Shown piece after piece: positions 11,637 through 53,804 of a stretch of 64,000 nt of DNA (positions within the stretch are counted from its first letter, which is position 1; every line of letters begins with the position of its first letter). The translations under genes were made by a program, and so were the position numbers. The stretch lies in assembly GCF_041248615.1 (NCBI RefSeq), contig NZ_CP158425.1; one strand, written 5' to 3'. Source of the DNA: Escherichia coli. Its GTDB lineage: Bacteria; Pseudomonadota; Gammaproteobacteria; Enterobacterales; Enterobacteriaceae. The notes under the pieces are model-generated. The model was not told the DNA's origin. It worked only from the letters and a program-made list of their open reading frames with translations, and searched no databases.

Positions 11637-11666
11637 AGTAAATATCTTCAAGCAAAAACAATTAAA

Positions 11667-11697
11667 CCAGATGTCTCATAAGAATCTGGTTTTTTAT
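11667..11697 (+). terminator. Intrinsic terminator candidate after the TraC-like gene
   Basis: Stem CCAGAT/ATCTGG (11667-11672, 11684-11689) with 11-nt loop, followed by a T-run. Confidence 0.45.
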
Positions 11698-12060
11698 TGT
11701 ATGCCTTAAGTAAACAAATGAGGTTATGACTTAATGAGTTCATCACTGTGCTGCAAATTTTGGTTTTATAATTAATATGGCTTAAAAACAGTGACATAAT
11801 TACAAATCGCATTTAGGTTGTGTACGCATTAAGTAAACAAAATTTATAACATCAATACTGACTTTATAAGATGAAATTCACGTAAATTACATTTTTGTTT
11901 ACCAAAGGTAATCAAAGGAGCGCGGCATTATTAGTGAAAACAGATCACTGGTGTCATATTGCATACAAAACTTAATATCCTTTAATCATTCTTCTAAAAG
12001 TTTAATATTAACGCTTTGGTTTATGAAAATTTATCCAATTTGCTCACCGAAGACTTTTAA

Positions 12061-15000
12061 CTTATTTAACCCCCTTTATCGCCAATCTGTGATTTTCTAA
12101 TGTTAGCCTACAGTTCTAGGGCCCTTGCTCCCATGATGCGAATCCTTCCACCTAATAAAGATTAACGCCTCATTCCTGTATGCCGGTCTTACGACGCCAG
12201 TGCACGGACAATTTTTGGTCATCACAAGGCCAGGCGGGAGATTTAATCAGGGCGTGGTGTTCCTTTGCAGCAGCTGCGGCACTGTAAGCCGAAGGCGGAA
12301 TTAACTCCTTTATCGCCATCTGGGGACGTCATTAGGGGTACCCCTTTTAACTTGCTCAGGACCATTAAGCTAAAATTCCGGATAGTGATTGACGTAAGAT
12401 TTAGGCTAAGCAGGTAAAGTGATCCCCGCTCCCGGGGTGACCACTTTATACAAAAGGCCGATCGGAAGATTGTCCTTAGGGAAATATTCCTTTAACACAG
12501 CACGGGCACTTACTGCCGCTGCCGGATTTAACCCCCTTAATCGCCAAACTGGGGTACTGTCCTGATGCTGGCCTTCCGTCCTGGGCAGGGTTGCTAACAC
12601 TTGCTCCCATGATACGAAATGCGCCAGCTGATACAGATTAACGTCTCATTACTCCATGCCGGTCTGCCGAAACTGGTGCATAGCTTTTTTCGATATTCGC
12701 ATGAACAGACGCTTGATTTTTTCAGGTTGTAATATACCTGAGCAGCATCTGAAGGCACTTTCAGTCGCTGTCAGATTTAACCCCCTTAATCGCCAAACTG
12801 GTGTTCTGTCCTCATGCAGGCCTTCAGTTCTGAGCTGGGTTGCTATCACTTGCTCCCATAATGCGAAATGTACCTGCTGATACAAATTAACGTCGTATTC
12901 CTGTATGCCGGTCTGCCGACACCAGTGCTCGGGCTATTTTCGGTCCTAACAAGACCTGGCGAGAGATTTAATCAGGGCGTGGTGTGACTGAGCAGCAGCT
13001 GGGGCACTGTTATCCGCTTGCAGATTTAACCCCCTTAATCGCCACACTGGGGTTCAGTCCTGATAGTGTCCTTCCGTCCTGGGCTCGGTTGCTAACACTT
13101 GCTCCCATGATACGAAATGCGCCTGCTGATACAGATTAAAGTCACATTACTGCATACCGATCTGCCGACTCCGGTGCATGGCTTTTTCCGATAATCACAA
13201 GGACGGACGGGTGATTTTATCTTTGCATAGTATGTCTGAGCAGCATCAGAAGGCTCTGTCAGCCACTGGCAGATTTAACCCCCTTAATCTCCAAACTGGG
13301 ATCAGTCCTGATAGTGTCCTTCCGTCCTGGGCAGGGTTGCTAACACTTGCTCCCATGATACGAAATGTGCCTGCTGATACAGATTAAAATCACATTACTG
13401 CATACCGGTCTGCCGACACCGGTGCATGGGCGATTTCCGACGATCTCAAGAACATATGGGAGATTATATCAGGGAGAGTAGTATGCCTGAGCAGCATCTG
13501 AAGGCACTGTCAGCCGCTGTCAGATTTAACCCCCTTAATCGCCAAACTGGTGTTCTGTCCTCATGCAGGCCTTCAGTTCTGAGCTGGGTTGCTATCACTT
13601 GCTCCCATAATGCGAAATGTACCTGCTGATACAAATTAACGTCGTATTCCTGTATGCCGGTCTGCCGACACCAGTGCTCGGGCTATTTTCGGTCCTAACA
13701 AGACCTGGCGAGAGATTTAATCAGGGCGTGGTGTGACTGAGCAGCAGCTGGGGCACTGTTATCCGCTTGCAGATTTAACCCCCTTAATCGCCACACTGGG
13801 GTTCAGTCCTGATAGTGTCCTTCCGTCCTGGGCTCGGTTGCTAACACTTGCTCCCATGATACGAAATGCGCCTGCTGATACAGATTAAAGTCACATTACT
13901 GCATACCGATCTGCCGACTCCGGTGCATGGCTTTTTCCGATAATCACAAGGACGGACGGGTGATTTTATCTTTGCATAGTATGTCTGAGCAGCATCAGAA
14001 GGCTCTGTCAGCCACTGGCAGATTTAACCCCCTTAATCTCCAAACTGGGATCAGTCCTGATAGTGTCCTTCCGTCCTGGGCAGGGTTGCTAACACTTGCT
14101 CCCATGATACGAAATGCGCCAGCTGATACAGATTAACGTCTCATTACTCCATGCCGGTCTGCCGAAACTGGTGCATAGCTTTTTTCGATATTCGCATGAA
14201 CAGACGCTTGATTTTTTCAGGTTGTAATATACCTGAGCAGCATCTGAAGGCACTTTCAGTCGCTGTCAGATTTAACCCCCTTAATCGCCAATCTGGGATT
14301 TTCTGATGTTAACCTACAGTTCAAGGCCCTTGCTCCCATGATGCGAACCTTGCAACCTGATAAAGATTTAAGCCTCATTCCTGTATGCCGGTCTTACGAC
14401 TCTAGTGCACGGGGACTATTTTCGGTCATAATAAGACCTGGCGGGAGATTTAATCAGGGCGTGGTGTGACTGAGCAGAAGCTGGGGCACTGTCAGCCGCT
14501 GGCAGATTAAAACCCTTTATTCGCCATCTCAAGACGTCATTATGGGTAGTCCTTTTAACTTTCTAAGGACCATTAAGCTTAAACTCCGTTTAGAGAATGA
14601 CGTAAGATTTAGGCTAAGCAGGTTAAGTGATCCCCGCTCCCGGGTTGAACACTTTATTCATCGTACGAGCGAAAGATTGTCCTTCGGGAAATATTTCTTA
14701 TACACCGCTCGGGCACTTACAGCCACTGGCGGATTTAACCCCCTTAATCGCCAAACTGGGGTACTGTCCTGATGCTGGCCTTCAGTTCTGGGCTGGGTGG
14801 CTATCACTTGCTCCCCTAATGCGAAATGTGTCTGTTAATACAGATTAACGTCATTTTCCTGCGTGCCGGTCTGCCGACACCAGTGCACGGCCTTTTTTCG
14901 GTCATTACATTACCGGGCAGGAGATTTTATCAGGGCGTGGTGTTACTGAGCAGGAGCTGGGGCACTATCAGCAGCTTGCATATTTAACTCCCTTAATCGC

Positions 15001-15640
15001 CAAACTGGTGTTCTGTCCTCATGCTGGCCTTCAGTTCTGGGCTGGGTTGCTATCTCTTGCTCCCATAATGCGAAATGTATCTGCTGATACAGATTAACGT
15101 CATATTCCTGTATGCCGGTCTGCCGACACCAGTGCTTGGGCTATTTTCGGTCATAACAAGACCTGGCGAGAGATTTACTCAGGGCGTGGTGTGACTGAGC
15201 AGCAGCTGGGGCACTGTCATCCGCTTGCAAATTTAACCCCCTTAATCGCCAAACTTGGGTTTTGTCCTGATGCTGGCCTTCCGTTCTGGGCGGGGTTGCT
15301 ATCACTTGCTCCCATCATGCGAAAAGTGCCTGCTGATACAGATTAACGTCATATTCCTTCATGCCGGTCTGCCGACACAAATGCACGGGCTTTTTTCGGT
15401 CCTTACAATACCGGGCAGGAGATTTAATCAGGGCGTGGTGTGACTGAGCAGCAGCTAGGACACTGTCAGCCGCTGGCAGATTTAACCCCCTTAATCGCCA
15501 CACTGGGGTTGCCTCCTGAAGTTGGGTTTCAGTTCTGGGCTAGGTTGCTAACTCTGCTCCCATAATTCGTAGTGGGCCTACTCAAGAGATTAACACCTCA
15601 TATCTTTAGACTGGACTGACGACAACGATTCACAGTTAGG
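12061..15640. repeat. Tandem array of about 14 direct repeats of ~249 bp with nested higher-order duplications
   Basis: The motif GATTTAACCCCCTTAATCGCCA(A/C)ACTGG recurs at about 12524, 12773, 13022, 13271, 13521, 13771, 14020, 14268, 14732, 14982, 15229 and 15478, with diverged copies at about 12062, 12300 and 14505. A 749-bp block is near-identical at 12650-13398 and 13399-14147, and the 12061-12600 flank is echoed at 14270-14810. Confidence 0.9.
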
Positions 15641-15973
15641 AAACGTAAATCAGCACACCGGTGAGATAGATTTTAGGGTCTAAGCAAGAAATAGGGTAGG
15701 CGTGAAGATTCATTAATGGAGCTCATAACGTCAAAGCGTAGAGAAGTCGACAAGAATCGTGGTTTAAAAAGAATGAGCATTAGGTATGGACTAGAGAGTC
15801 TGAGCTCTCATCTGCAAGTTAAGCTCACAAAAAATCATAAAAAAGTAAACAAACATTAGCTTAGGATTGAAACAAAGGATAGAATTGTACGTATAACAAT
15901 GAAATGGACGCATTATGCGTAAAGTTTACATATATGCGTAAAAGTCGGTTTTCAGTGCAAAAAGGTCATAACC

Positions 15974-41637: not shown

Positions 41638-42696
41638 ATGTCTAATGCCGCTATGAAGTTAAATGAAACATCTTCTGATGCTTATGAAAAATTAGAAGCT
41701 CTTCTTTCCCCGGATGTTATAAAGTTAAAACATTATGTGGATAAAGGTGAGTATCTTTTAGTTCTAGCAAAGGACCTTTTTGGTATTCCAGAAATGGATC
41801 CAAAGATGGCTGTGCCTGTTTTCAAAACTAAAACCTCGTATCGAGCTCCGCTGAACAAAGACTACATACCAAATCCCCGAATACTTGAACAAGTGGTTAA
41901 ACTGCTTATCAGTCCGGATATAGATTTAAGTGTGTGTCTTAAAGGTGAGTCCGGTTCTGGCAAGACTGAAATGGTAATGTACATTAGCCACATGATGAAT
42001 TGGCCGCTGACAATTAAGCAGATCAACAGCAATATTCGAGTTGATGAGCTTGAAGGTGAGCGCAGTCTTAATGGTGGTAATACAGGTTTTGTACACAGCG
42101 ATTTGGTAACGGGATTTCGTAATGGTCACCTCATTCTTCTGGATGAAGTGGACAAAATCGATCCTGATACGGCAGCAAAACTTCACATGCCCATTGAACG
42201 TAAGCCCTGGTCACTCAGTGCTAATGGTGGTGAGGTTATAACTGCTAATGGCTACACGCGATTTATTGGTACTGCAAACACAAACATGAGTGGAGGCGCT
42301 CGCCGGTTCGTTTCTTCTCAACGTCAAGATGCAGCTTTTATAAAGCGGTTCTTGATAGTTGAAATGGAGAAGCCCGACAAAGTTGCTTTAACCAATGTGC
42401 TTACTAAACGATATAGCTCTTTGCCTTTTCAGGTCATTGAGAAGTTCGTAAGAGTAGCGATTGCAGTAAATGACTCTGGTACAGAAGACAGTGTGATGGA
42501 TATTCGTCAATTAGTAGCTTGGGTTGGCACGTCGATGACGTTAAAAACCTTTAGTCTTCTTGACACTTTCAAAATAGCTTTTGCTTCTGCTTTACCTTTA
42601 CATGTGGTCGATCTTGTTCTTCAAGCTATAGATCTTTCTCTTGGCGAAGACAAGGATAAATCGCTGGAGTATTTCACAGCAAAAAAGTCGAGTTAG
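41638..42696 (+). CDS. AAA+ ATPase of the MoxR/CobS-like class
   Basis: 352 aa; Walker A (GESGSGKT), Walker B (ILLDEVD), downstream arginine-rich segment; size typical of MoxR/CobS. Confidence 0.7.
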   Translation: MSNAAMKLNETSSDAYEKLEALLSPDVIKLKHYVDKGEYLLVLAKDLFGIPEMDPKMAVPVFKTKTSYRAPLNKDYIPNPRILEQVVKLLISPDIDLSVCLKGESGSGKTEMVMYISHMMNWPLTIKQINSNIRVDELEGERSLNGGNTGFVHSDLVTGFRNGHLILLDEVDKIDPDTAAKLHMPIERKPWSLSANGGEVITANGYTRFIGTANTNMSGGARRFVSSQRQDAAFIKRFLIVEMEKPDKVALTNVLTKRYSSLPFQVIEKFVRVAIAVNDSGTEDSVMDIRQLVAWVGTSMTLKTFSLLDTFKIAFASALPLHVVDLVLQAIDLSLGEDKDKSLEYFTAKKSS

Positions 42697-43031
42697 ATGG
42701 GATTTGTTATGAAACCTCTGATATTTGTATCTCAGAGTTATCCCATCTTGAATTTAGTGCGTTTTTAAGTACGGATGGTGCTGCTACCATTGCTATAGCA
42801 AAAAACGGAACTAATTTTACTGGACTTATGCAACTGAATAACGACTATTCTTTATTGTTTTATCATGATGGTAAAATAAATATGGAAGGTCTGATTAAAC
42901 AAATGGAATTAAAAGGTTATATGTATCAGGGAGCAATGGGCAATGATGATGTTGTTGCTGAGTTTCCCGGTATTCTTTTAATTTCACCAGAGAAGCTTTA
43001 ATATCAACCCTATCGGGAAATCTTTCCCGTT

Positions 43032-43054
43032 GGGGAGGGTTTCCCCTTTTTTTT
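43032..43054 (+). terminator. Hairpin plus T8 element upstream of the 43065 gene
   Basis: GGGGA ggg TTTCCCC then 8 T, preceded by the perfect palindrome CGGGAAA tc TTTCCCG (43014-43029). Confidence 0.45.
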
Positions 43055-43064
43055 GGAGAAACCC

Positions 43065-44192
43065 ATGACTTTAAATACTTCAATGCTTAACAAAGTATCT
43101 GCAAAACAAATCTCTGAGAATTTTGCAAAATCATATCCAGATTTACTGGAAGGTGCAGTTATAACAAAAATTGAAATAAGTGGCTGTCAAGGATCGCGTC
43201 GAACCGATAAAATCGATTTGTCTTATGATGGAGATGATATTACGGATCAAAAAAGCGTATCTAAAAGCGAAGTACGCTGGATTGACATAAAAGCCCTTAG
43301 CTTCAAAAGTACGATTACCAGCAGAATATCAACTCTTTGCTCACGCTTGTGCATCCGCTATAGCAATATGTGGATTTTACCAGTATCCAGTATGGAAGAG
43401 TTTCTGGAAGGGGCCCAAGAGATTGAACGAGAGTTTCAGGCAGGTATTCAAAACGTTGTAGACAATTATGAGATGCATATTGAGGCTGAAAAAAATAGAA
43501 GCCCAAGAATGTCTTCTTTGATTGATCAGTTGAAATTAACTAAAGATGATTTCATAAAATCCTTTAGATTTAATATTGCTCACTTTATTCCTTTTACGCC
43601 TATTAGCGTTGAAGGTGATGAAACCCAGGACTACTATCAGGAACAATTGATAACAGATCTGGCAGAAGAAGCAATGAAGGTTTATGAAAAAATTAGCAAA
43701 AATAACAATTTGCGCTCAAGTACTATTGACCGACTGAAGCAAATGCAAAATAAGATCATTAGCTTCATGTTTATACATAAAGAGGCGGCAGTACTTGCAG
43801 AAGCTATAAAACACATAATGAATAATTTACCTAAAGGTGCCATTTCTGAACCTCGCGACGTTGCGGTGTTACAGCAGTGGTTTTATTTCATGAGTGATGC
43901 TTCAATGTTAAAGCGTATTATTTCAGGAGAGCAAAAGGTTACTGACTGGTTGGAATCTATTACCAGATCATTTAATCAAAGCTCACAAACAGAACCGAAC
44001 GCGCTACAGAACACAGGTATTGAAGCTATTTTAGATTCAACAAATGTGTTCCAGGTTGAACCTGTCGTAGAGAACGATATAAATAACAGCACGTTTTCAA
44101 ACACTGATCCTGTAGCTGAACCTGAGAAATCAGTTTCGCAACAGGAAGACAATGTTGAAAATTGTTTTGATATCGAGCTCAAAGGCTGGTAA
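43065..44192 (+). CDS. Hypothetical protein (ORF-track start 43053 is TTG; ATG at 43065 preferred)
   Basis: About 375-aa ORF between the AAA+ and vWA genes; RBS GGAGAAA. Confidence 0.4.
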   Translation: MTLNTSMLNKVSAKQISENFAKSYPDLLEGAVITKIEISGCQGSRRTDKIDLSYDGDDITDQKSVSKSEVRWIDIKALSFKSTITSRISTLCSRLCIRYSNMWILPVSSMEEFLEGAQEIEREFQAGIQNVVDNYEMHIEAEKNRSPRMSSLIDQLKLTKDDFIKSFRFNIAHFIPFTPISVEGDETQDYYQEQLITDLAEEAMKVYEKISKNNNLRSSTIDRLKQMQNKIISFMFIHKEAAVLAEAIKHIMNNLPKGAISEPRDVAVLQQWFYFMSDASMLKRIISGEQKVTDWLESITRSFNQSSQTEPNALQNTGIEAILDSTNVFQVEPVVENDINNSTFSNTDPVAEPEKSVSQQEDNVENCFDIELKGW

Positions 44193-44219
44193 CTGTTTGC
44201 TTTATTAAAAACCCCAGAT

Positions 44220-44254
44220 GGGTACTTCACCATCTGGGTGAGTACCCCTTTTTT
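44220..44254 (+). terminator. Hairpin plus T-run with an overlapping alternative stem
   Basis: GGGTACT/AGTACCC stem followed by T6; interdigitated with CCAGATGG/CCATCTGG (44214-44221, 44230-44237). Confidence 0.5.
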
Positions 44255-44269
44255 ATAAAGAGGTATTCT

Positions 44270-46288
44270 ATGAAATTAGATCTTAAATCATCACCGCGCC
44301 ATATTAAGCGTTTACAGAATATAGCAAAAGTCATTAGCGGCTTAGGCGATGTAAGAGTTGTAATAGACGACAATACCAAAGGACCGTATTTTGATCCTGT
44401 AAATAAAGTTTGTGTTTTACCAAACGGCGATTATAGCGATGATGACTTTGTCAGTCTGATTGAAGGTTTTACCTGTCATGAAGCTGGTCATGGTCGCTAT
44501 ACCGACAGCGAGGTTTACAGTGACGCCTTTAATAGTGTTCTCAAGTCATCTGAAGGGTTTACACGCTTCGATGACGGAATGAATGCAGAGTTTGAGAGCC
44601 TCGCTGAGAAACGTAAAGCTTATAGCAGGGCAAAACGTCTTACCGGGCTTATAAATCTGTTCGATGATGTACAGATGGAAGAGAAGGTTGGTAACGATTA
44701 TCCGGATGCAAAGCGGCGGCTTGCAGCCACTTACGCACTGATGGTTAAAGCCGGAAGGATGACTCCTGATATATCTTCTCGTCCGGAAAATCCTGTCCTA
44801 TTTATTGAGTGGTATCTGCTTAACTCATTGCGAGTAAAAGTCCTTCAGCAGGCAGGTCACAAAGAAACACTCGATCCGTTTTTTGACTATGCCCAAAAGA
44901 TACTTTCTCCAGTAATTTCTGATGTTGAGGAAATTTTTCATGATGCTCTTGGTTGTGAAAATACTCAGGGCTGTGAATCCCTTGCTCGTAAGACCCTGGC
45001 TCTTTTAGAGAGACTGCGGGATGAGGCAAGGGAACAACAGCAGCAGACAGAGCAGGAGGAGCAGGAGGCATATGATGAATCCGAGACCGAGACCGATACC
45101 GATACCGATACCGAATCAGAAGATAAATCGCTTGAGTCGACTGATAGTCGTGAGGATGATTCTGAGGACGATAGTGAAGGTCAGGCAGATACTTCCGATA
45201 ACTCTGATCTTGCTCAAGAGGGATGTTCTGAGCCTTCAGAACTTGCTGAAGATAACGAGGGAAATAATGAACCCACCGGTGGCAATCCCACAGGTGATAA
45301 CATTATTGAAGACGATACTGATGCGATTAACCCTTCCGAGAGTGAATCAGATGAAGCCAGTTCGACTAACGTTGAAGATGAAAGTAACTTTTCATCGGCT
45401 CAATGGGAGATACTGGCAGATTTGTTGGATGCCTTTCTTGGCAGTGATGAGGATAGCGAAGATTATCACGATGCTTTGGCTAAAGAGATTGAAGGTATTG
45501 CATCAAAAGTATCCGATGACGTGAAAGCCGAATTCGGTGCTTCTGAATGGGATATCCCTGATCTCCTTATCGATTTGAATGTTTACAATGAGGCTTTGTC
45601 TCTGAGTCATTCAATCGGTAGCGACTTGTCTGTTTTACAGCAGGTTAAAATGCGTGGCCGAAACAAAACTCATGAGCGTGGAATTACCTTCGATGGAAAT
45701 CGATTAATTCTGTCACCAATGGGAGTTCGTGATGTCTTCAGAGCTCAAAGCGAATCTAAAAATAGAGGGCATGTTGGCCTCGTATTAGTTCGTGATATTT
45801 CAGCGTCAATGGCTAATGATGAAAGATATATTCATGCCATTAAGTCAGATCTTGCTTTATCGATGGCCGCTGAAAGTTTGTCAAAAATGCATGTCTCCAA
45901 TATAGTCTTTCCCTTCAAGGAAAGTGAATTTGAGATTATCAAAACGTTTGATCAAAGCGTTGAGGAATCTCTATCGAAATTCACTCTTGGATGTAAGGGT
46001 TATTATACCCCTACGGGATCGGCTTTAATGGCAGCTGTTGATCTGTTACTTGACAGCCAATTCGATAGGAAAATAATTTTTCTTATAACTGATGGTTATC
46101 CGAATAAATCGGAATTTACTATCGGCGAAGTTATGGAAAAGGCTAAATGTAATGGAATAGAAATCGTTGGTGTTGGTATTAAGACTGATGAAATAATTGG
46201 TTTTGAAACGGACACTTTCGTAACAGTTGATGATACTTCTTTATTGTCTATTGAAGTCAGTAAGCTAGTTCATCAAATACTTTCTTAA
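44270..46288 (+). CDS. vWA-domain protein with long acidic low-complexity linker (CobT-like partner of the AAA+ ATPase)
   Basis: 672 aa; C-terminal MIDAS-like DxSxS (VRDISASM) and later TDG motif (LITDGYPN); central Asp/Glu/Ser/Thr-rich region of about 130 aa. Confidence 0.65.
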   Translation: MKLDLKSSPRHIKRLQNIAKVISGLGDVRVVIDDNTKGPYFDPVNKVCVLPNGDYSDDDFVSLIEGFTCHEAGHGRYTDSEVYSDAFNSVLKSSEGFTRFDDGMNAEFESLAEKRKAYSRAKRLTGLINLFDDVQMEEKVGNDYPDAKRRLAATYALMVKAGRMTPDISSRPENPVLFIEWYLLNSLRVKVLQQAGHKETLDPFFDYAQKILSPVISDVEEIFHDALGCENTQGCESLARKTLALLERLRDEAREQQQQTEQEEQEAYDESETETDTDTDTESEDKSLESTDSREDDSEDDSEGQADTSDNSDLAQEGCSEPSELAEDNEGNNEPTGGNPTGDNIIEDDTDAINPSESESDEASSTNVEDESNFSSAQWEILADLLDAFLGSDEDSEDYHDALAKEIEGIASKVSDDVKAEFGASEWDIPDLLIDLNVYNEALSLSHSIGSDLSVLQQVKMRGRNKTHERGITFDGNRLILSPMGVRDVFRAQSESKNRGHVGLVLVRDISASMANDERYIHAIKSDLALSMAAESLSKMHVSNIVFPFKESEFEIIKTFDQSVEESLSKFTLGCKGYYTPTGSALMAAVDLLLDSQFDRKIIFLITDGYPNKSEFTIGEVMEKAKCNGIEIVGVGIKTDEIIGFETDTFVTVDDTSLLSIEVSKLVHQILS

Positions 46289-46303
46289 TAAACTCTACCC
46301 AAT

Positions 46304-46332
46304 CGGGGCAAAAGGCCCCGGTGGGTCTTTTT
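46304..46332 (+). terminator. Hairpin plus T-run after the vWA gene
   Basis: CGGGGC aaaag GCCCCG with outer ACCCA/TGGGT arms, then CTTTTT. Confidence 0.5.
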
Positions 46333-46359
46333 GCTCCATGAAGGAATAAGGAGCAAAAT

Positions 46360-46581
46360 ATGACTCAGATAAAAACTTACCGTGTAGAACATGAAAAAGT
46401 CGGTGCGATGCATAAAGTCCGTATTTTCGGACGTGTTGGTGAAGTTATAAGCAATGATAGCCCTCAGGAAAGAATCTTCCGCGAAGTCACTATAGCGGAG
46501 GGTAATAGCCAGCAGGCTGCGTTACTTGTAGATAACTACATACAGCGTCTTGAGAATAATGGCTTCACGACTGAAGCATAA
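46360..46581 (+). CDS. Small hypothetical protein
   Basis: 73 aa with good SD (AAGGAG) 7 nt upstream; bracketed by hairpins. Confidence 0.35.
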   Translation: MTQIKTYRVEHEKVGAMHKVRIFGRVGEVISNDSPQERIFREVTIAEGNSQQAALLVDNYIQRLENNGFTTEA

Positions 46582-46586
46582 ATGTT

Positions 46587-46610
46587 GAGGGCCCCCGGGC
46601 CCTCTTTCTT
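46587..46610 (+). terminator. Hairpin plus T-rich tail after the small gene
   Basis: GAGGGCCC cc GGGCCCTC then TTTCTT. Confidence 0.5.
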
Positions 46611-46694
46611 AAATTCTGCGTTGTGGGTTTCTCCCTGTCTTCTGCACCGCAGAAGGCATTGAGAAACTCACAATGCCAGATAAGAGAGATCATC

Positions 46695-47927
46695 ATGACT
46701 TATGCATCCCCGGCTCTTCGTCGTAATCCACAGGAAGTATCTGAACACTTTATTAAACTCGTTCATGCTCGAATTGCTGAAGTGTCTGGCTGGAAGTATA
46801 TATTCGAAAGAATACCTGCTTTCAAAGACGCTTGTGCAAAAGCCCCGAGCCAGGTTCCTTGCCCGTTTACTGGCGCAGGGAAATCGAAGTTTCGTTTCCG
46901 ACAAAAAGACCTTTATACCGGATGTGCGATCCATAATGACTTTCCGGTAAATGAGTTTTGCGACGGAATTGATGTTCTGGCGAAATATTATGAATTAAGT
47001 AAAACGCAGACTTGCAAAAAGATTCTCTCAGATTTTTTCGGGATGGATCTGCATGCTCCGTTAACTGACGCCGACATTGAAAATGAACGACGCTATAAAT
47101 CAGCAGTTCGTGCCACAGAAACTCTTGACCGAGAGGAAGTGGCAAAGCGAATGCGAAAACTTGATGTGATGTATCACTATACCGGTGAAATCAAGCCTAA
47201 TACTCCTGTTGCTTTGTACCTCCGTAATCGTGGGATCTCCCGCTTACTGAGTCACTTACCAAAGGATTTAGGCTTTAATAACCGGATCTACTATTGGGAT
47301 AAAGATAAGCAGAAATCGATTATCTATCCGGGAATGATTGCGATCTATCGTGACACCCGAGGTCGGCCTCTGACTATTCATAGAACATACGTAGACAAAA
47401 ATGGTGATAAGGCACCTGTAGAAAATCCAAAGCTGATGATGAAGCCTCCTGCCGATATGACAGGTGGCTCAATTCAGTTGTTTGACCCTCACTATGATTC
47501 AGGTAGTTCGACCTGGACACTGGGAGTGGCTGAAGGGATCGAGAACGCGCTTTCTGTTGTAGAAGCGACTTCAACACCATGCTGGGCAGCCAGCTCCGCA
47601 TGGTGCCTTGAAAACGTTACTGTTCCTGATTTTTTACTGCCTCCGCCGGATGTAAAATCTATAAACTTTTATATCTGGGCGGATAAGGATATTGCTAACT
47701 CACAAGGCACTCGTGCCGGTATTGAAGCTGCTCAGCGACTTCAAAGCCGCATGGTTGAGTTTTTGGCTAAACGATATCCCGCATCAAAGCTGACAATTGA
47801 AGTCTTCGAACCAGCACAAGATATTCCTGATGGGAAAAAGGGTATCGACTGGAACGATGTTCTCCAGTTAACAGGGCAGGATGGATTCCCGATTCACTGG
47901 GCTCCTGAATGTCTTAATCAGCTGTAA
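46695..47927 (+). CDS. DNA primase-like protein (zinc-binding N-terminus plus Toprim-like C-terminal domain); ORF track extends to 46623
   Basis: CxxGxGKxKFRF-type zinc-binding motif (CPFTGAGKSKFRFRQKD...CAIH), recalled as similar to P4-alpha/TraC-type primases; acidic Toprim-like segment (YIWADKD...GTRAGIEAAQRL); RBS AGAGAG before ATG 46695. Confidence 0.55.
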   Translation: MTYASPALRRNPQEVSEHFIKLVHARIAEVSGWKYIFERIPAFKDACAKAPSQVPCPFTGAGKSKFRFRQKDLYTGCAIHNDFPVNEFCDGIDVLAKYYELSKTQTCKKILSDFFGMDLHAPLTDADIENERRYKSAVRATETLDREEVAKRMRKLDVMYHYTGEIKPNTPVALYLRNRGISRLLSHLPKDLGFNNRIYYWDKDKQKSIIYPGMIAIYRDTRGRPLTIHRTYVDKNGDKAPVENPKLMMKPPADMTGGSIQLFDPHYDSGSSTWTLGVAEGIENALSVVEATSTPCWAASSAWCLENVTVPDFLLPPPDVKSINFYIWADKDIANSQGTRAGIEAAQRLQSRMVEFLAKRYPASKLTIEVFEPAQDIPDGKKGIDWNDVLQLTGQDGFPIHWAPECLNQL

Positions 47928-47931
47928 CAAC

Positions 47932-47965
47932 GATAACTCCCCCGCTTTTTGCGGGGGGGGTTATC
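47932..47965 (+). terminator. Long GC hairpin after the primase-like gene
   Basis: GATAACTCCCCCGC ttttt GCGGGGGGGGTTATC. Confidence 0.4.
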
Positions 47966-48005
47966 TTATCAATATTATATTTTAAAATTGTATTGATAAG
48001 ATAAC
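47960..48005. promoter_or_regulatory. Perfect 14-bp inverted repeat with 18-bp AT-rich spacer (operator-like)
   Basis: GTTATCTTATCAAT (47960-47973) and ATTGATAAGATAAC (47992-48005) are exact reverse complements. Confidence 0.4.
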
Positions 48006-48197
48006 CGCTTTCCTTCGTGATAATTACCTGCCTTTAAGGTCTTTTCACGGCTGAGATGCTTGCTCAGTTAAATAAATGTGCGGTACTACTGGCTATGGTC
48101 GGTTGTATGACATGGTTATTCCATAAACTATTAAAACCCATAACGGGAGTATTACCGTTATGGTGATGCTCGTCGTTTTACATCGGAGAGCATTTTA

Positions 48198-48797: not shown

Positions 48798-49676
48798 ATG
48801 AAGTTAGCTACGGACCTGGTAAAAGCTATTTTGATTAGAAATGGCGTTGAACCAGTAAATATAAGCGAATCATCTAAGTTATCTTTGAAACAACCACTGA
48901 CAGAACTTAAATTCAGTTTATATTTGCGAACTGAGCATTTATCTCACTTCCTACCCGGTTATGTTTATTCTATAAAAGAATGTCCACTGTCATATGACAT
49001 CGGGATCGAAATTCAGAAAATCTTCGAAAGTTTACATTTGTTAAACGAAGAATTTGAATCCCTCGGTTTTGTTTCTGTATGGATAGAAATGCATCAAAGC
49101 ATTTTTGAACAAAGTCGGTTTAAGAAAAGTAACTTTACTTTTCGGGAGGAAGAGGTCGAGCTTGCTAAAGGGCTTGTTTGTTCTCACAATTCACAAATAA
49201 GTAATGCGGCTTATTTCTGGCTTCAGCACTTTGAGGAGTTTATGATTTATGTTCGTAATAAGCTTATCGACCTCTTTCGAGAGGCCTATGACCTGATCCT
49301 TGGAATGCAGCAAGTATTTTTCATTCGGGAAAAGGAAGAGCTGTTGAAAACTATAAGTTATGGCGATGAGCTGTATGAGGTGAAATTCATGGCGGCTGAG
49401 CTTTACTCTATCGAACAGAACTTAAAGTGTTCTGAATCGATAAGTACAAAATCTCAAGCTTCGGCATATATTAACCGCATCCGTGAGTTTGTGCGTTCGG
49501 GGTGGAGGCAGGGCTATATAGTCTGCCATCATAAGCGAAGTAATCAAATTTCATCATTGTCATTACCGATGTACTTGAAAGATACGTCAGGCCGAAGTGC
49601 TCGAAAGCGAGTAAAACGTCTTATATCTTCTACAGTTTGTGGTAGAAATAAAGATTTAGGTCTTACAGATTTTTAA
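48798..49676 (+). CDS. Hypothetical ~300-aa protein, member 1 of the tandem paralogue family
   Basis: 292 aa; N-terminus (LVKAILIRNGVEPVNISES) shares a pattern with the four following genes. Confidence 0.45.
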   Translation: MKLATDLVKAILIRNGVEPVNISESSKLSLKQPLTELKFSLYLRTEHLSHFLPGYVYSIKECPLSYDIGIEIQKIFESLHLLNEEFESLGFVSVWIEMHQSIFEQSRFKKSNFTFREEEVELAKGLVCSHNSQISNAAYFWLQHFEEFMIYVRNKLIDLFREAYDLILGMQQVFFIREKEELLKTISYGDELYEVKFMAAELYSIEQNLKCSESISTKSQASAYINRIREFVRSGWRQGYIVCHHKRSNQISSLSLPMYLKDTSGRSARKRVKRLISSTVCGRNKDLGLTDF

Positions 49677-49694
49677 TTAAATTATACCCATGTG

Positions 49695-49730
49695 GGGATC
49701 ACACCCCATATGGGAGTGATCCCTTTTTTT
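49695..49730 (+). terminator. Hairpin plus T7 between paralogues 1 and 2
   Basis: GGGATCAC/GTGATCCC stem then 7 T; overlapping near-palindrome CCCATGTGGGG / CCCCATATGGG. Confidence 0.55.
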
Positions 49731-49746
49731 ATTGAGAGAGGATCAC

Positions 49747-50682
49747 ATGAAAATTATCGAAAAAATCATTAATGCCTTTTTGGTTGTTCAACATAAAAAA
49801 ATACAGGTTAAAAACATTACATTTTTAGACAATGGGCAGGGCATGTTCTCTGGTATGTCTTTTGATGCTGATGTTTCACTGGAGTTTATGTATGAATCAG
49901 CAAAAGCATATAGTTCTTGTTTCTTTGATATTCCCTTTCCAGGTTTTGAAGATGCAAATCTGGAGGAAATTACGAAATTTCAATTAGATGCTTTGAAGCA
50001 AAGAAAGAATCATTCTTTCTTTGTTAACCATTTGAGGTTTCCTATAGTTTTAAGGGAAGGGTGCAAAATCGAAAGAGGAGAAGTCTATTCAATTTCGAAT
50101 TGCACTTATAATAAAGAAAGATTGCAGTATCTTTTTTCTCAGGATATTTACGGTAAGTTGTATAATTCCTTAGAGAAAGAATTAAGCTCGTTTTTCTCAT
50201 TTATCAATGTTGAGGTGCACGAGTTGTTAAAAGATGCTGTATGCTTTGCATTAAAAATCCTGAATAAGATATCTTTGGATACACCTGAAAGACTTATTAA
50301 AGCTTTTAATTATCGTGACTGGTATTGTAGTTACGATGTTGAGCTTTTTAGGAAAGGCTTACCTGGTCATATTCTGGAAGAGCTCATTGCTCCAGATATC
50401 TTACTTTCAGACCTTAACGGTTGTAGAAAAATACTTAGAAATGCAAAACGATTTCTAAATGGACATACACAAACCAATTGTGTTTATATTAAATATGAAT
50501 GGTGGTTGGGGCCTGTTGATACCTCACACTCAGCTAAGTTGATGTCTGACAAAGAAATTAATAACCGAAGTGACTTGAAGAATTTTTCAAAGGTCTTTTT
50601 CAAAGAGTGTTTAAGTTCTGGTAAGTCGGAATATGAAAACCATCTTAGTGAAAAAGAACATGCGCTTCGCTATAATTATTAA
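49747..50682 (+). CDS. Hypothetical ~300-aa protein, paralogue family member 2 (ORF-track start 49732 is TTG; ATG 49747 preferred)
   Basis: N-terminus KIIEKIINAFLVV...ITFLDNG follows the family pattern. Confidence 0.45.
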   Translation: MKIIEKIINAFLVVQHKKIQVKNITFLDNGQGMFSGMSFDADVSLEFMYESAKAYSSCFFDIPFPGFEDANLEEITKFQLDALKQRKNHSFFVNHLRFPIVLREGCKIERGEVYSISNCTYNKERLQYLFSQDIYGKLYNSLEKELSSFFSFINVEVHELLKDAVCFALKILNKISLDTPERLIKAFNYRDWYCSYDVELFRKGLPGHILEELIAPDILLSDLNGCRKILRNAKRFLNGHTQTNCVYIKYEWWLGPVDTSHSAKLMSDKEINNRSDLKNFSKVFFKECLSSGKSEYENHLSEKEHALRYNY

Positions 50683-50750
50683 TTAAAATTATTTTCTCCC
50701 ATAGGGATTTCTCCCTATGGGAGAAATCCCTCTATTAAGAGGGTATTGAA

Positions 50751-51671
50751 ATGAATGCTATACAAAAGTTAGTTGAATCTATTCTTGTTAAAATGGGTTT
50801 TGTTGGCGCTGTAGTGGAAAATATATATTTGGATTCAAAACCATTTCGGCATATTCGATTTGTGGCTGATATTCCAGTAATATCTTTTCTACCTCATTTG
50901 GTGAAATATCTTAAGGGTGCAGACCATCTTTACAGTGGTAACGATGATTTGCATCCTCTTTTCATTTATTTTTCCGAAGCGGCTACATTAAAAGCAGGTC
51001 CTGTAAATCTCGCGAACTTTCGTTTTGAAGTTTCTATAGCTTCAACTCATTTACGACTGGTCTCAGAGCAGCCTGATTTGCTTTTCAAAGGATTTAACCG
51101 GGATAATCTAGAATACGTTTATTACCGCTCAGATTTGGCCTCTAAGGATCTTATACTAGGCCTTGTTGAACACGGTTCTCCTTTCATAAAACATCTACAT
51201 GGACTTATACAAAAGCGAATTTTAAACGAGTTCTCTCTGATTTTTTCTGTTCTTGAAAAGATTTTAGAAAGCGCGAAGCCACAAATTCTTGCTTGCTTCC
51301 ATAGTGTTGATTATGAAATGAACGTAAAAATAATAGCCGAAGCTATACCTGAAACTGTATCTAATCAGATAGTCACATCTGATTATATAGTTAATTCTAT
51401 ATCAGATGCGGACAAGTTTATAAATCATGTTCGTCGCTATTTAGCAGGCAGGGTAATGAAGAGGCGGATATACGCTGAATTAGATGTTTGTGAAGAAACA
51501 TCAAGTATTTCACTAGTGAACTTAGGATGCTTTACGTCTCCTCTGCTCGTTACGGAATATCAAATGTTTAAGCCACACTCTTCAGGGTTATATCGAAAAG
51601 CTATAAACAACTCCTTAAAACAGTTCAAACCAGAAATGCATGTACCTTCTGAAGAACTCTTTTATAATTAA
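50751..51671 (+). CDS. Hypothetical ~300-aa protein, paralogue family member 3
   Basis: 306 aa; N-terminus IQKLVESILVKMGFVGAVVENIYLD. Confidence 0.45.
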   Translation: MNAIQKLVESILVKMGFVGAVVENIYLDSKPFRHIRFVADIPVISFLPHLVKYLKGADHLYSGNDDLHPLFIYFSEAATLKAGPVNLANFRFEVSIASTHLRLVSEQPDLLFKGFNRDNLEYVYYRSDLASKDLILGLVEHGSPFIKHLHGLIQKRILNEFSLIFSVLEKILESAKPQILACFHSVDYEMNVKIIAEAIPETVSNQIVTSDYIVNSISDADKFINHVRRYLAGRVMKRRIYAELDVCEETSSISLVNLGCFTSPLLVTEYQMFKPHSSGLYRKAINNSLKQFKPEMHVPSEELFYN

Positions 51672-51737
51672 TCTAACCCATCCGGGAACCTGCTTCCCGG
51701 TGGGAAGCACTTCCTTTTTAGTCATGAGGTAGTGTAA

Positions 51738-52676
51738 ATGTTTAAAGAATCTGACCACGTGGAATTTGTTAGTGCCTTTCTTTATCAAAATTTAGGCCTT
51801 AATGTTTCCGCTGACGATATAACCGTTCAATTATCTGATACTTCGTTCGACAAAGTAACCTTTGATTACGATGTAGATATCGATAATTTAAATTGTATGT
51901 TGGATCTCTACATATCTGAGCTAATAAAGCACAACGCATCTTACTCCGATTCTATTCTTTTGAAACAAAAAATAATTTATTTTCTTGGAGTATTTAAGAA
52001 TTTCGGATTTTTTACGTTTGATATTCGCGGATATAGTAATACTTTAAGCCCAGTTAAAGTTATTGATATTGTTTCAATGATTATTAATGACTGTGAAGAG
52101 TTATCTAAAGCTAATTCTTCTACTGATGCTATAAGAAATCTTTATCTCGATAAAATGAAGGTGGATGGGAAAGTGTTAGTTGCGAAATTTGCACTTAAAC
52201 AGTTTTTTCATTCCGACTTTGGTGACTTTATCTCATTTGTCGAGAAAAGAATTACAGATTGTCTTAATGAAACTTTAAGGATTATCAAAGCTGTTGAACA
52301 TGGCTTTGTACGTGTAGGGCAGCATAAGATTAATCGCCGTATTAATGATGACTTAAAGTTATGCATTGATTTCAATACTGATGATTATCCGGCAAATATG
52401 CCAGATATATATATTAAGTTTAACGATACATTTGATGGGAACGGGGCGTTATATTGTGACAATGATGCCCTCATATCCCTCTATACCGATGTTGCTTCAA
52501 TTATCAATGTGCCGGTGATGATGGAAGTAAGATTGATCAATAAAAGAGGGCGTGTTGTCTGTGATTCTTCGCATTCAACTTACGTATCTCTCGAAAGTAA
52601 TGACCGATACAGAGTAACTGATCGCACATTACTAATAACTGAAGCTTTTGACGATTTTCGTAACGCGTCTCAATGA
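51738..52676 (+). CDS. Hypothetical ~300-aa protein, paralogue family member 4
   Basis: Clearly paralogous to member 5 (VDGKVLVAKFALKQFFHSDFGDFISFVEKRIT versus VDGQVMIARFALQQFWDTHFIGLITFVSESIT); same upstream context GAGGTAGTGTA(A/T)ATG. Confidence 0.5.
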   Translation: MFKESDHVEFVSAFLYQNLGLNVSADDITVQLSDTSFDKVTFDYDVDIDNLNCMLDLYISELIKHNASYSDSILLKQKIIYFLGVFKNFGFFTFDIRGYSNTLSPVKVIDIVSMIINDCEELSKANSSTDAIRNLYLDKMKVDGKVLVAKFALKQFFHSDFGDFISFVEKRITDCLNETLRIIKAVEHGFVRVGQHKINRRINDDLKLCIDFNTDDYPANMPDIYIKFNDTFDGNGALYCDNDALISLYTDVASIINVPVMMEVRLINKRGRVVCDSSHSTYVSLESNDRYRVTDRTLLITEAFDDFRNASQ

Positions 52677-52847
52677 TCCTTTTGCTTCAGTCCAAAAAAG
52701 TAACTTTGGTTGGCTGAAGACACTTGTCTATGACAATGTAAAATCTGTCGCTGGCATCTTCTTTTAGCTTAACCAAATTTTTATCTAACCCAGTGGGGAA
52801 GTCGCTTCCCTTCTGGGGCACTTCCTCTCAAATTCGAGGTAGTGTAT

Positions 52848-53804
52848 ATGACACATTCATCTGATGATAAAAACTATGTCCGAGCAGTTCTGAGTTATCT
52901 TGGCATAGATTTTGATGAGGCGGATATAGTATTAAGTGTTTGCCATTGTCAAAGTGACGAGCTTTCTTTTACCTGTAATATCAAAGCTATTGAACTCAAG
53001 AATGCTGTTGATTTATATGTCGATAGTATCTCTGAGAATGAAATAGAAGCTTTAAACAGAGAATCTTTAAAATCGCGACTCTGTTACTTTCTTGAGGTGT
53101 TTGACGCAGTCTCTGGTCAGTACCTTGAAATTTCAGGAAAACACTTTGCAACTAGTCGTTTTGAATATGATGATGTTTGTAGTGAAGTTCTTAGCATGTC
53201 TAATGATGTTTCTCAGTCGAAAGGTTATGACCGGGATGAATATAACAGACTGATGCAGGTTGATGGTCAGGTTATGATTGCCCGTTTTGCTTTGCAACAG
53301 TTCTGGGATACTCATTTTATTGGACTAATAACATTTGTATCTGAGTCTATAACATCGAGCCTCTATAAAGCTTATGAAACTTTTAGTGATATTAGTTTGG
53401 CTTGCTATAAACTGAGTGAATATTCTTATTCACGCTCTATCAACAGTGAATTGACCCTTAATATTTCACTTAAAGAAAATGACTTCTGTGAGGACCTATC
53501 TGATTGCTATATGGAAGATGAGGCTTTACCTTCTGGTAGGGTAATTTCTCGACGCAACAATGACTCCATAATAAGTATTTATGAGAGCTATGCTGCGGCT
53601 TCTTATATTCCGATGATTGCATCTTTGGAAGTCGTTGATGAATACGGCGAAGTGGTTACTGACCTCTGCCATACCGTTTATGTTTCAGAGTTAACCGGTG
53701 GGCGGATTAAAATCCACGACCGTAATGACTTAGTATCTGAAGTTTTCGATAACCTAAGAAATTTAAATCTTGCAGTTGGAGATTCAGTTTCACAAGCTGC
53801 TTGA
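52848..53804 (+). CDS. Hypothetical ~300-aa protein, paralogue family member 5 (ORF-track start 52842 is GTG)
   Basis: Paralogue of 51738-52676 along the whole length. Confidence 0.5.
   Translation: MTHSSDDKNYVRAVLSYLGIDFDEADIVLSVCHCQSDELSFTCNIKAIELKNAVDLYVDSISENEIEALNRESLKSRLCYFLEVFDAVSGQYLEISGKHFATSRFEYDDVCSEVLSMSNDVSQSKGYDRDEYNRLMQVDGQVMIARFALQQFWDTHFIGLITFVSESITSSLYKAYETFSDISLACYKLSEYSYSRSINSELTLNISLKENDFCEDLSDCYMEDEALPSGRVISRRNNDSIISIYESYAAASYIPMIASLEVVDEYGEVVTDLCHTVYVSELTGGRIKIHDRNDLVSEVFDNLRNLNLAVGDSVSQAA

Follow-up and report, generated by a model that had tools for sequence, protein, structure and literature searches.

A long, conserved stem-loop in the leader of a Toprim-domain gene of IncHI-type plasmids: a probable cis-regulatory RNA

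Introduction

What is the function of a long inverted repeat that immediately precedes a primase-like gene on an Escherichia coli plasmid? The repeat lies in a 64-kb stretch of DNA, hereafter called the window, and the initial annotation had described it as an imperfect hairpin of ~49 nt (46623-46671). When we checked the sequence, all of the hairpin coordinates given there were correct. The core arms, GTGGGTTTCTC (46623-46633) and GAGAAACTCAC (46661-46671), contain one G·T position and enclose the inner palindrome TTCTGC-N3-GCAGAA, in which TTCTGC (46640-46645) and GCAGAA (46649-46654) flank the acc loop at 46646-46648. AGAGAG at 46684-46689 precedes the ATG at 46695. The hairpin is thus real, but its extent was understated, because these ~49 nt are the core of an 87-nt stem-loop. 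Here, we describe the complete stem-loop, its conservation within and beyond IncHI-type plasmids, and the roles that it might have.

Results

Genomic context of the hairpin

The window is collinear with the E. coli plasmid pM160133_p1 (NZ_CP022165.1), an R478-like conjugative plasmid of the IncHI2A, MOBH and MPF-F types, and the two are identical over the coordinates checked (46200-48000). The queried 1.8 kb occur with at least 99% identity in 1,118 plasmid records from Escherichia, Salmonella, Enterobacter and Klebsiella. Besides a replication gene, the window carries the Tra2 transfer region; a long series of genes on the same strand comes after these, in the order hypotheticals, AAA_5 ATPase, DUF3150, VWA protein, 73-aa protein, Toprim gene, more hypotheticals and a Tus-like protein; ~12 kb of these same-strand genes lie downstream of the hairpin. 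Most junctions of the gene block have strong hairpins, and behind the Toprim stop codon there is a further long one. A Pfam search with the 73-aa protein gave no match, and a small gene is annotated at the same position in the IncHI1, K. grimontii IncHI1B and K. pneumoniae IncHI1B/IncFIB loci. Comparison of the Toprim protein with solved structures found no close relative.

Translation start of the Toprim gene

The mechanically defined open reading frame of the Toprim gene extends upstream to a GTG at 46623, and this frame is open both in the window and in K. grimontii-type plasmids, which would permit 46623-46694 to code for an N-terminal extension of the Toprim protein. The initial annotation had instead regarded the extension as probably untranslated leader, and several observations support it. 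The RefSeq annotation places the start of the Toprim gene at 46695, and six homologues (79% down to 27% identity) from a set of IncHI1, Klebsiella IncHI1B, Pseudoalteromonas, Shewanella and Vibrio plasmids either align from the Met at 46695 or start later. Furthermore, the spacer between the hairpin and the ATG differs from that of the window by -1 nt in IncHI1, by -2 nt in the Klebsiella IncHI1B-type and by +1 nt in pYSP8-1, and because of these indels, which break the frame in three lineages, the GTG reading frame is not conserved. There is also no Shine-Dalgarno (SD) sequence ahead of the GTG. We give a coding role of this segment practically no credence.

Structure and stability of the complete stem-loop

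The coordinates of the features are collected in Table 1. The helix extends outward beyond the core, an extension that had been overlooked, and pairs the tail of the upstream terminator with the ribosome-binding site (RBS). The first two bases of the anti-SD arm are common to the terminator stem, and the SD sequence on the opposite arm ends 5 nt before the ATG. In the apical stem, 46636-46645 pair with 46649-46658, and a 2x2 internal loop lies below. The bulged nucleotide at 46676 is C in IncHI1 and IncHI2 and U in the Klebsiella type.

Table 1. Features of the Toprim gene leader and its surroundings in the window
Feature	Coordinates	Strand	Basis or remark
Small upstream gene, 73 aa	46360..46581	+	Annotated CDS; transcript ends at the terminator abutting the hairpin
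Intrinsic terminator, stem-loop GAGGGCCCCCGGGCCCTC (46587-46604) with TTTCTT tail	46587..46610	+	Terminator scan
Complete leader stem-loop, 87 nt, 38 bp, 4 G·U pairs	46603..46689	+	Folding prediction; rank 1/12,782 in the window; conservation
Base helix 5' arm, anti-SD arm (UCUUUCUUA), 9 bp	46603..46611	+	Minimum-free-energy and centroid structures
Lower helix 5' arm, 19 bp	46615..46633	+	Invariant in 11/11 IncHI-type variants (see text for their retrieval)
In-frame GTG extension of the mechanical ORF, rejected as coding	46623..46694	+	Frame-breaking indels; homologue starts
Apical stem (10 bp) with 3-nt loop	46636..46658	+	Variant alignment; variable part, changes via G·U intermediates
Lower helix 3' arm with bulged pyrimidine 46676	46661..46680	+	Fold and variant alignment
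Base helix 3' arm including SD AAGAGAG (46683-46689)	46681..46689	+	Fold; SD pairing probability 0.90-0.98
Toprim-domain primase-like gene (DUF7146 + Toprim_3)	46695..47927	+	Start at ATG 46695; annotation, homologue alignment, Pfam

The predicted stability of this structure is exceptional for the window. The segment 46620-46675 folds with -35.2 kcal/mol (z = -8.6), and 0/200 dinucleotide shuffles were as good, while the segment 46582-46700 folds with -62.3 kcal/mol (z = -8.8), a value reached by no shuffle. In a scan of 12,782 windows of 90 nt covering both strands of the 64 kb, the hairpin was the most stable of all at -51.8 kcal/mol, followed by the next best at -39.8 kcal/mol, with a mean of -16.6 and a standard deviation of 5.1 kcal/mol. 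The minimum free energy of the Toprim leader (-58) was likewise the lowest among 57 gene leaders.

We found zero matches in the 64-kb window to Rfam 15 at gathering thresholds. The best hits of a lenient Rfam search were models of animal miRNA precursors; with 17-22 bits, where the gathering scores are 72-90, they reflect a generic resemblance to hairpins. In the literature, searches directed at the element itself and at transcript maps of IncHI plasmids turned up nothing relevant. The hairpin is probably a known kind of cis-regulatory RNA for which neither an Rfam family nor a published description was found at this site. A search of the window for second copies of either arm with up to 3 mismatches found none, and where BLAST reported two places per record, the second is most likely the opposite strand of the palindrome itself; the blastn comparison with a Klebsiella IncHI1B plasmid also contains a self-match on the minus strand at the hairpin site. 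An attC-like recombination site was rejected on inspection of the sequence, in which the core motifs GTTRRRY and RYYYAAC are absent.

Conservation among IncHI-type plasmids

A sensitive DNA search with 46340-47100 returned full-length matches in IncHI1/IncHI1B plasmids, at 78-79% identity. Several hundred further plasmids, mainly Klebsiella IncHI1B/IncFIB, whose Toprim protein has only 45% identity, gave a match in the same search that was limited to 46606-46688 with 83% identity, and in them this hairpin segment occupies the same place, after the small gene and its terminator and before the Toprim gene. In a blastn comparison of the window and a 50-kb piece of a Klebsiella IncHI1B plasmid, the hairpin was the sole non-coding segment among 16 matches, the remaining ones being coding DNA with 64-87% identity. 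The hairpin is better conserved than the adjacent coding DNA, taken as the first 600 nt of the Toprim gene, in every lineage compared (92 vs 77%, 91 vs 78%, 88 vs 70% and 81-83 vs 61-63% identity).

We aligned 11 distinct variants of the hairpin, three of them from metagenomes. Among these, 21 of the 29 hairpin pairs never vary, although some variants were retrieved by a pattern fixing part of the outer arms, where the invariance is meaningful only for the BLAST-retrieved lineages. Four pairs vary one-sidedly via wobble pairs (G-C/G·U, U·G/U-A and U·G/C-G), and double changes do not occur. The cells of the hairpin are paired in 92.8% of cases compared with 42-55% when the partners are slid, and those of the base helix (helix 2 of the alignment pair count) in 84.5%. 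The only variable parts are the apical helix with its loop, the bulge and the base; the internal loop shifts by one step among the variants, CC/UU giving way to one mismatch, either C·U or C·C. Covariation in the IncHI alignment was not above the shuffle control (87/500), and no compensatory changes were found. The evidence for selection within the IncHI clade is therefore unusually strong conservation, not covariation. Four further palindromes from metagenomes (L101, L102, L115 and L120) share 12-mer arms and are otherwise unrelated; by a rough estimate, their number is about the chance expectation for a 23-base palindromic pattern.

Toprim-leader hairpins in other plasmid families

To place the element in a broader context, we inspected 80 loci of Toprim relatives from a one-genome-per-species collection together with plasmid loci. 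The order DUF3150-VWA-Toprim is kept in Pseudoalteromonas, Shewanella (four variants), Rheinheimera and Vibrio. Directly before the SD sequence, a hairpin of 60-90 nt with z-scores of -6.4 to -13.1 is present in Pseudoalteromonas, Shewanella, Rheinheimera and IncA/C loci, and a terminator-like stem precedes it in most of the non-IncHI loci. The hairpin is the top-ranked fold of its locus in three IncHI-type loci, Pseudoalteromonas, IncA/C and Rheinheimera and is among the top folds of its locus in Shewanella; it ranks 1-2 within the locus in six loci. In every family carrying one, it lies 0-12 nt from the SD sequence, and an internal loop or bulge is found at a similar height in every clade. 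Among 27 pairs in the four Shewanella variants, three are compensated and eight show one-sided wobble changes. The long hairpin is absent from the more distant Toprim genes examined (Vibrio, SXT-like elements and various MAGs).

The non-IncHI hairpins have the same build as the IncHI version, and their sequence is unrelated to it; indeed, the clades share no alignable hairpin sequence. Because hairpins of the same build share no sequence, it is the fold rather than the sequence that is kept across families. The regulatory fold proposed in the initial annotation is borne out insofar as conservation and the same-build hairpins elsewhere support selection on the fold; that this fold is regulatory is what we infer. 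Each plasmid family holds its own hairpin sequence nearly fixed. The small upstream proteins of the IncHI and the marine-clade loci, which would be candidates for a common trans-acting factor, could not be aligned with each other.

Read-through transcription across the terminator

The 5' base of the hairpin is the tail of the 46587-46604 terminator, which directly abuts the hairpin on its 5' side in the window and in two related loci (L002 and L007). At the position of the terminator, relatives have a different GC-rich stem, that is, the terminator was replaced while the hairpin was kept, and columns 16/35 of the terminator alignment show a compensated change from G-C to A-U. A promoter scan between the terminator and the Toprim start in four loci found no sigma-70-like site (none at 46605-46695 in the window), and the promoter candidates found by hand are weak and lack conservation. 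Since there is no promoter between the terminator and the start, the Toprim message must be a read-through transcript that contains the whole hairpin. We also considered the long hairpin itself as an intrinsic terminator. However, the scan reported only the neighbouring 46587-46604 stem, and the 3' flank of the hairpin is AGAUCAUCAUG; because it lacks a U-tail, the hairpin is not a second terminator.

Pairing of the Shine-Dalgarno sequence

In the predicted fold, the SD sequence is base-paired within a stable local structure, the base helix, as in RBS-occluding leaders. The SD sequence is predicted to be paired with a probability of 0.98 in the window and of 0.85-1.0 in the IncHI1, Pseudoalteromonas and Rheinheimera leaders; the value is 0.57-0.69 for the leaders of K. 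grimontii, Klebsiella and IncA/C, and it drops to 0.40 in Shewanella, where the SD sequence lies outside the hairpin. Opening of the positions -15 to +13 would cost 12.9 kcal/mol, which ranks 7th among 54 genes with a median of 9.1; the corresponding values are 6.7-9.4 in two IncHI1-type leaders, 2.9-6 in Shewanella and 16.8 in Rheinheimera. Because the opening energy is unexceptional, and ordinary or low in several relatives, SD occlusion alone does not explain a helix of 38 bp, and this comparison weakens the idea that occlusion is the only function. Composition by itself would in part lead a U-rich terminator tail to pair with a purine-rich SD sequence, and such pairing recurs at other junctions of the block. 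An RNA thermometer of the fourU or ROSE kind was rejected, as SD pairing in the window falls only from 0.99 at 15 °C to 0.95 at 60 °C and is flat with temperature in all eight leaders tested.

RNA or DNA

The hairpin could in principle act as RNA, as single-stranded DNA or as a DNA duplex. The sense strand folds better than the antisense strand by 6-21 kcal/mol in 11/11 loci, with 4-8 G·U pairs on the + strand compared with 0-4 on the - strand. Since the fold depends on G·U pairs on the sense strand and lies 0-12 nt from the SD sequence in every family, an mRNA structure is the best reading, and the element would act as a sense-strand RNA, not as DNA and not as coding sequence.

A role in single-stranded DNA, either as an ssi priming signal for the primase-like protein or as a Frpo-like promoter during conjugative entry, is suggested by the adjacent primase-like gene on a conjugative plasmid and by the stability of the IncHI + strand with DNA energy parameters (-25.5 kcal/mol, z = -7.2). 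Frpo-type hairpins are widespread in the leading regions of plasmids (PMC11541004). With the same parameters, however, the Shewanella hairpin is not significant on either strand (z = -1.0 and -1.1), nor is the IncA/C minus strand (z = -0.8), so that the versions of these two clades are not significant as DNA. No -35/-10 pair is found in or around the stem, and a Frpo promoter for the Toprim gene would require folding of the minus strand, which is the weaker one in 11/11 loci and reaches z = -3.9 with DNA parameters in the window. The best complementary-strand promoter candidate found by hand, AAGACA-N17-CAGAAT, would start an RNA ~8 nt from the ATG, without an SD sequence. A priming site would also have no reason to keep a fixed distance of 0-12 nt from the SD sequence in every clade. 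The oriT of IncHI plasmids is in the Tra1 region, the window contains Tra2, and no relaxase gene is annotated in the 90 kb inspected, so that placement in a leading region is unsupported. We thus see only a slim chance for a single-stranded DNA role. Even less probable, and in our opinion extremely so, is a palindromic operator for a transcription factor in double-stranded DNA. An inverted repeat with an inner 6-bp palindrome and a strongly conserved sequence would fit such an operator, but its arms are 38 bp long, there is no promoter to be regulated, and the other clades retain the fold and not the sequence. The element is moreover strand-specific in its asymmetry, as all non-Watson-Crick positions are G·T on the + strand.

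Discussion

A model for post-transcriptional control of the Toprim gene

On balance, the hairpin is probably a cis-acting structured 5' leader that limits the Toprim gene post-transcriptionally by partial occlusion of the RBS together with probable processing by RNase III. According to this model, transcription from upstream would first read through the terminator at 46587-46610, and the read-through RNA would fold into the 87-nt, 38-bp hairpin, whose base would pair the pyrimidine-rich terminator tail with the SD sequence. The terminator and the hairpin together would hold Toprim expression low and insulated from upstream transcription, in part because the RBS would be partly occluded and in part because ~40 bp of nearly continuous dsRNA would be offered to RNase III. 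A cut by RNase III would detach the Toprim cistron from the RNA upstream of it and would determine how stable and how translatable the cistron is. Both the lowering or control of expression by the hairpin and the involvement of RNase III are features that we infer.

RNase III-processed leader hairpins are known from the E. coli pnp and rnc leaders, the phage lambda N leader and the early mRNA sites of T7, and in the pnp, rnc and lambda N leaders, which have hairpins of comparable size, cleavage alters mRNA stability or translation. The Toprim leader is predicted to resemble them in having a helix of >22 bp with an internal loop, located in the 5' leader directly before the RBS. RNase III accommodates ~22 bp of dsRNA, and its cuts can make an mRNA either more or less stable (PMC6212723); the predicted stack of helices of 9, 19 and 10 bp with small loops between them provides such a length. 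Unlike the known leaders, with which it shares no sequence, the Toprim hairpin is conserved in its primary sequence beyond the known requirement of RNase III.

Other elements of the model also have precedents. In the E. coli rpsU-dnaG-rpoD operon, an internal terminator and a weak RBS keep the primase scarce. The Toprim gene similarly lies behind an intrinsic terminator, has a weak or poorly accessible RBS and would be encoded by read-through transcripts only; it differs in its long leader hairpin, which dnaG is not known to have, and its product (DUF7146 + Toprim_3) is a primase-like protein rather than an established primase. In the fold-back inhibition of the IS10/Tn10 transposase, pairing of the RBS with a sequence upstream of the gene makes read-through transcripts poor templates for translation, and transcripts from the internal IS10 promoter escape this pairing. 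The sequence upstream of the Toprim gene also pairs with the RBS, but no internal promoter was found in the Toprim leader, and the intervening 70-nt helix has no counterpart in IS10. The Toprim hairpin has in common with Frpo and ssi elements that it is a long imperfect stem-loop ahead of a gene on a conjugative plasmid (PMC11541004), from which it is distinguished by the lack of -35/-10 elements, by the stability of the wrong strand and by a G·U-dependent fold that is unstable as DNA in two clades. A U-rich strand pairs with the SD sequence as in the fourU and ROSE thermometers; unlike in these, the predicted pairing hardly changes between 15 and 60 °C, and the stability of the helix is far too high for melting.

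Alternative roles of the RNA

The strong invariance of the primary sequence is explained neither by RNase III nor by occlusion of the ribosome. The invariance of the 19-bp lower helix across IncHI plasmids exceeds what helix stability would need, and it hints at an additional, sequence-specific partner. The main rival explanation invokes such a partner: the leader would be an RNA operator next to the RBS for a sequence-specific plasmid protein, either the Toprim protein in autorepression or the 73-aa protein. It would account for an invariant core with a variable periphery both in the IncHI clade, with 21 of 29 pairs fixed while the protein is at 45% identity, and in the Shewanella clade, for the interruption of the helix by an internal loop or bulge at much the same height in all clades, and for hairpin sequences that are each family's own, as expected if they co-evolve with a plasmid factor. 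Neither the Toprim protein (DUF7146 + Toprim_3) nor the 73-aa protein, however, was found to contain an RNA-binding domain, and the failure to align the IncHI and marine-clade small proteins also speaks against it; we regard an RNA operator as unlikely, although it is the alternative that we take most seriously. A lower chance falls to the view that the hairpin has no specific regulatory role and is a back-up transcriptional insulator or a stability hairpin like others in the block. Most block junctions do have strong hairpins, as does the region after the Toprim stop codon, but at -51.8 compared with -39.8 or weaker for the others, without a U-tail, and as the only non-coding DNA conserved between diverged IncHI lineages, the Toprim-leader hairpin stands apart, and this view is improbable. 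Very improbable, in turn, is a put-like cis-acting antitermination RNA that would make the polymerase resistant to the terminator-like hairpins downstream, an idea prompted by the unusually conserved sequence and by a site just past a terminator and ahead of ~12 kb of same-strand genes with strong hairpins at nearly all junctions. The put RNA has a two-stem fold, and the Toprim hairpin consists of one long helix; it resembles known antiterminator RNAs neither in sequence nor by Rfam, IncA/C plasmids in the same hosts use a different sequence, and the argument is one of position alone.

It is about as unlikely as the RNA operator, but of more consequence if true, that the invariant 19-bp lower helix is a sequence-specific recognition element, be it as an autoregulatory RNA operator for the Toprim protein or another backbone protein or as a polymerase-modifying read-through RNA. 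Such an element would represent a new family-specific class of RNA motif in the AAA-DUF3150-VWA-Toprim module of MOBH conjugative plasmids, comprising IncHI, IncA/C and their marine relatives.

Implications for plasmid biology

A structured leader that limits the Toprim gene, as we favour, would overturn no concept, since structured leaders behind terminators are a familiar way of keeping a gene quiet. The hairpin is nevertheless a candidate for a new cis-regulatory family in Rfam. IncHI2, IncHI1, IncHI1B and IncA/C plasmids play a major part in carrying resistance genes, mcr-1 and NDM among them, and their non-transfer backbone genes are almost unstudied. Among these backbone genes, the Toprim gene is marked as one probably under strong dosage control, because its leader contains the most stable fold in 64 kb and the sole conserved non-coding DNA. 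A single helix of ~90 nt thereby offers a compact handle on the expression and the role of the AAA-DUF3150-VWA-Toprim module.

Gene order of the module and its small ORFs

We found the order DUF3150 - VWA - (small ORF) - Toprim to be common to plasmids of Enterobacterales, Alteromonadales and Vibrionales, the majority of which were typed MOBH. IncHI-type loci additionally carry an AAA_5 ATPase gene upstream of these genes. The small ORFs in the VWA-Toprim interval of the marine plasmids have the common motif NG.K..IG..W...P; the Shewanella ORFs encode 39-55 aa and that of Pseudoalteromonas 52 aa, and in Rheinheimera the motif lies within a longer open frame. In L008, the one Shewanella record with annotation that we examined, this ORF is not annotated. 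No alignment was possible between the marine small ORFs and the 73-aa protein encoded at the corresponding interval of IncHI plasmids.

Table. Coordinates of the features discussed (L-numbers, comparison loci encoding Toprim relatives; L101, L102, L115 and L120, metagenome contigs)
Feature	Window	Comparison loci	Description
DUF3150 - VWA - (small ORF) - Toprim module	41638-47927	L002, L007, L008, L009	
Small ORFs between VWA and Toprim genes		L008 3778-3897; L015 2248-2400; L016 858-1019; L017 2229-2396; L007 3727-3885; L012 2088-2399	
Strong sigma-70-like site	46050-46077		TTGACA-16-AATAAT, 11/12 matches
Upstream ORF	46674-46727		17 codons, from conserved AUG in right arm of leader hairpin
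Post-Toprim hairpins	47938-48006	L003 4601-4667; L008 5117-5203; L015 about 3627-3710	
Further terminator-tail/SD pairings	49677-49746, 50683-50750, 52677-52847		
Perfect palindrome	50693-50726		15 bp
Apparent paralogue array	48798-53804		five consecutive genes, about 290-320 aa
Metagenome palindromes		L101 1394-1456; L102 1497-1558; L115 294-346; L120 1804-1858	
Stretch without listed gene	11637-15973		4.3 kb

Features upstream of the Toprim gene

Located in the 3'-terminal part of the VWA gene and ahead of a terminator at 46302-46322, the sigma-70-like site could be a promoter for the small gene and, via read-through, for the Toprim gene. Closer to the Toprim gene, the upstream ORF that begins in the leader hairpin (the stem-loop directly 5' of the gene) overlaps the Toprim start in the window. 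Its stop codon overlaps the Toprim AUG (AUGA) in Klebsiella-type plasmids, and in IncHI1 plasmids the hairpin-arm AUG is in frame with Toprim, where RefSeq places the gene start (3336 in L003, seven codons early). The conserved AUG and its ORF are probably merely part of the stem.

The 12-nt arms GTTGTGGGTTTC...GAAACCCACAAC of the leader hairpin also occur in palindromes of four unrelated metagenome contigs, in differing contexts; by a rough estimate, this number is about what chance would yield for the searched pattern.

Other features of the gene block and the window

At other junctions of the block, too, the terminator tail pairs with the Shine-Dalgarno sequence (SD) of the next gene, and the initiation regions there have opening energies of 13.7-15.3 kcal/mol. 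Such pairing may be a design principle that holds throughout the block, or it may result from composition. Within the apparent paralogue array, only the products of the genes at 51738 and 52848 were detectably related (BLASTP, 27% identity, E = 4e-37); the gene at 48798, the sole one scanned against Pfam, gave no match. The stretch without a listed gene was taken from the PLSDB feature table, which is known to be incomplete.

Hairpins downstream of the Toprim gene

The Toprim gene is flanked by hairpins on both sides. Just 3' of its stop codon in the window there is a GC hairpin and, immediately after it, a long AT-rich one whose arms, GGTTATCTTATC...GATAAGATAACC, measure 23 nt (z = -8.0). This two-hairpin arrangement, with identical GGTTATC...GATAACC ends, was also observed in IncHI1 and Shewanella plasmids, and in the latter nothing else in the locus folds as stably as the post-Toprim hairpin. 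Because its two strands fold near-equally (-39.6 versus -35.9 kcal/mol), the post-Toprim hairpin may act at the DNA level.
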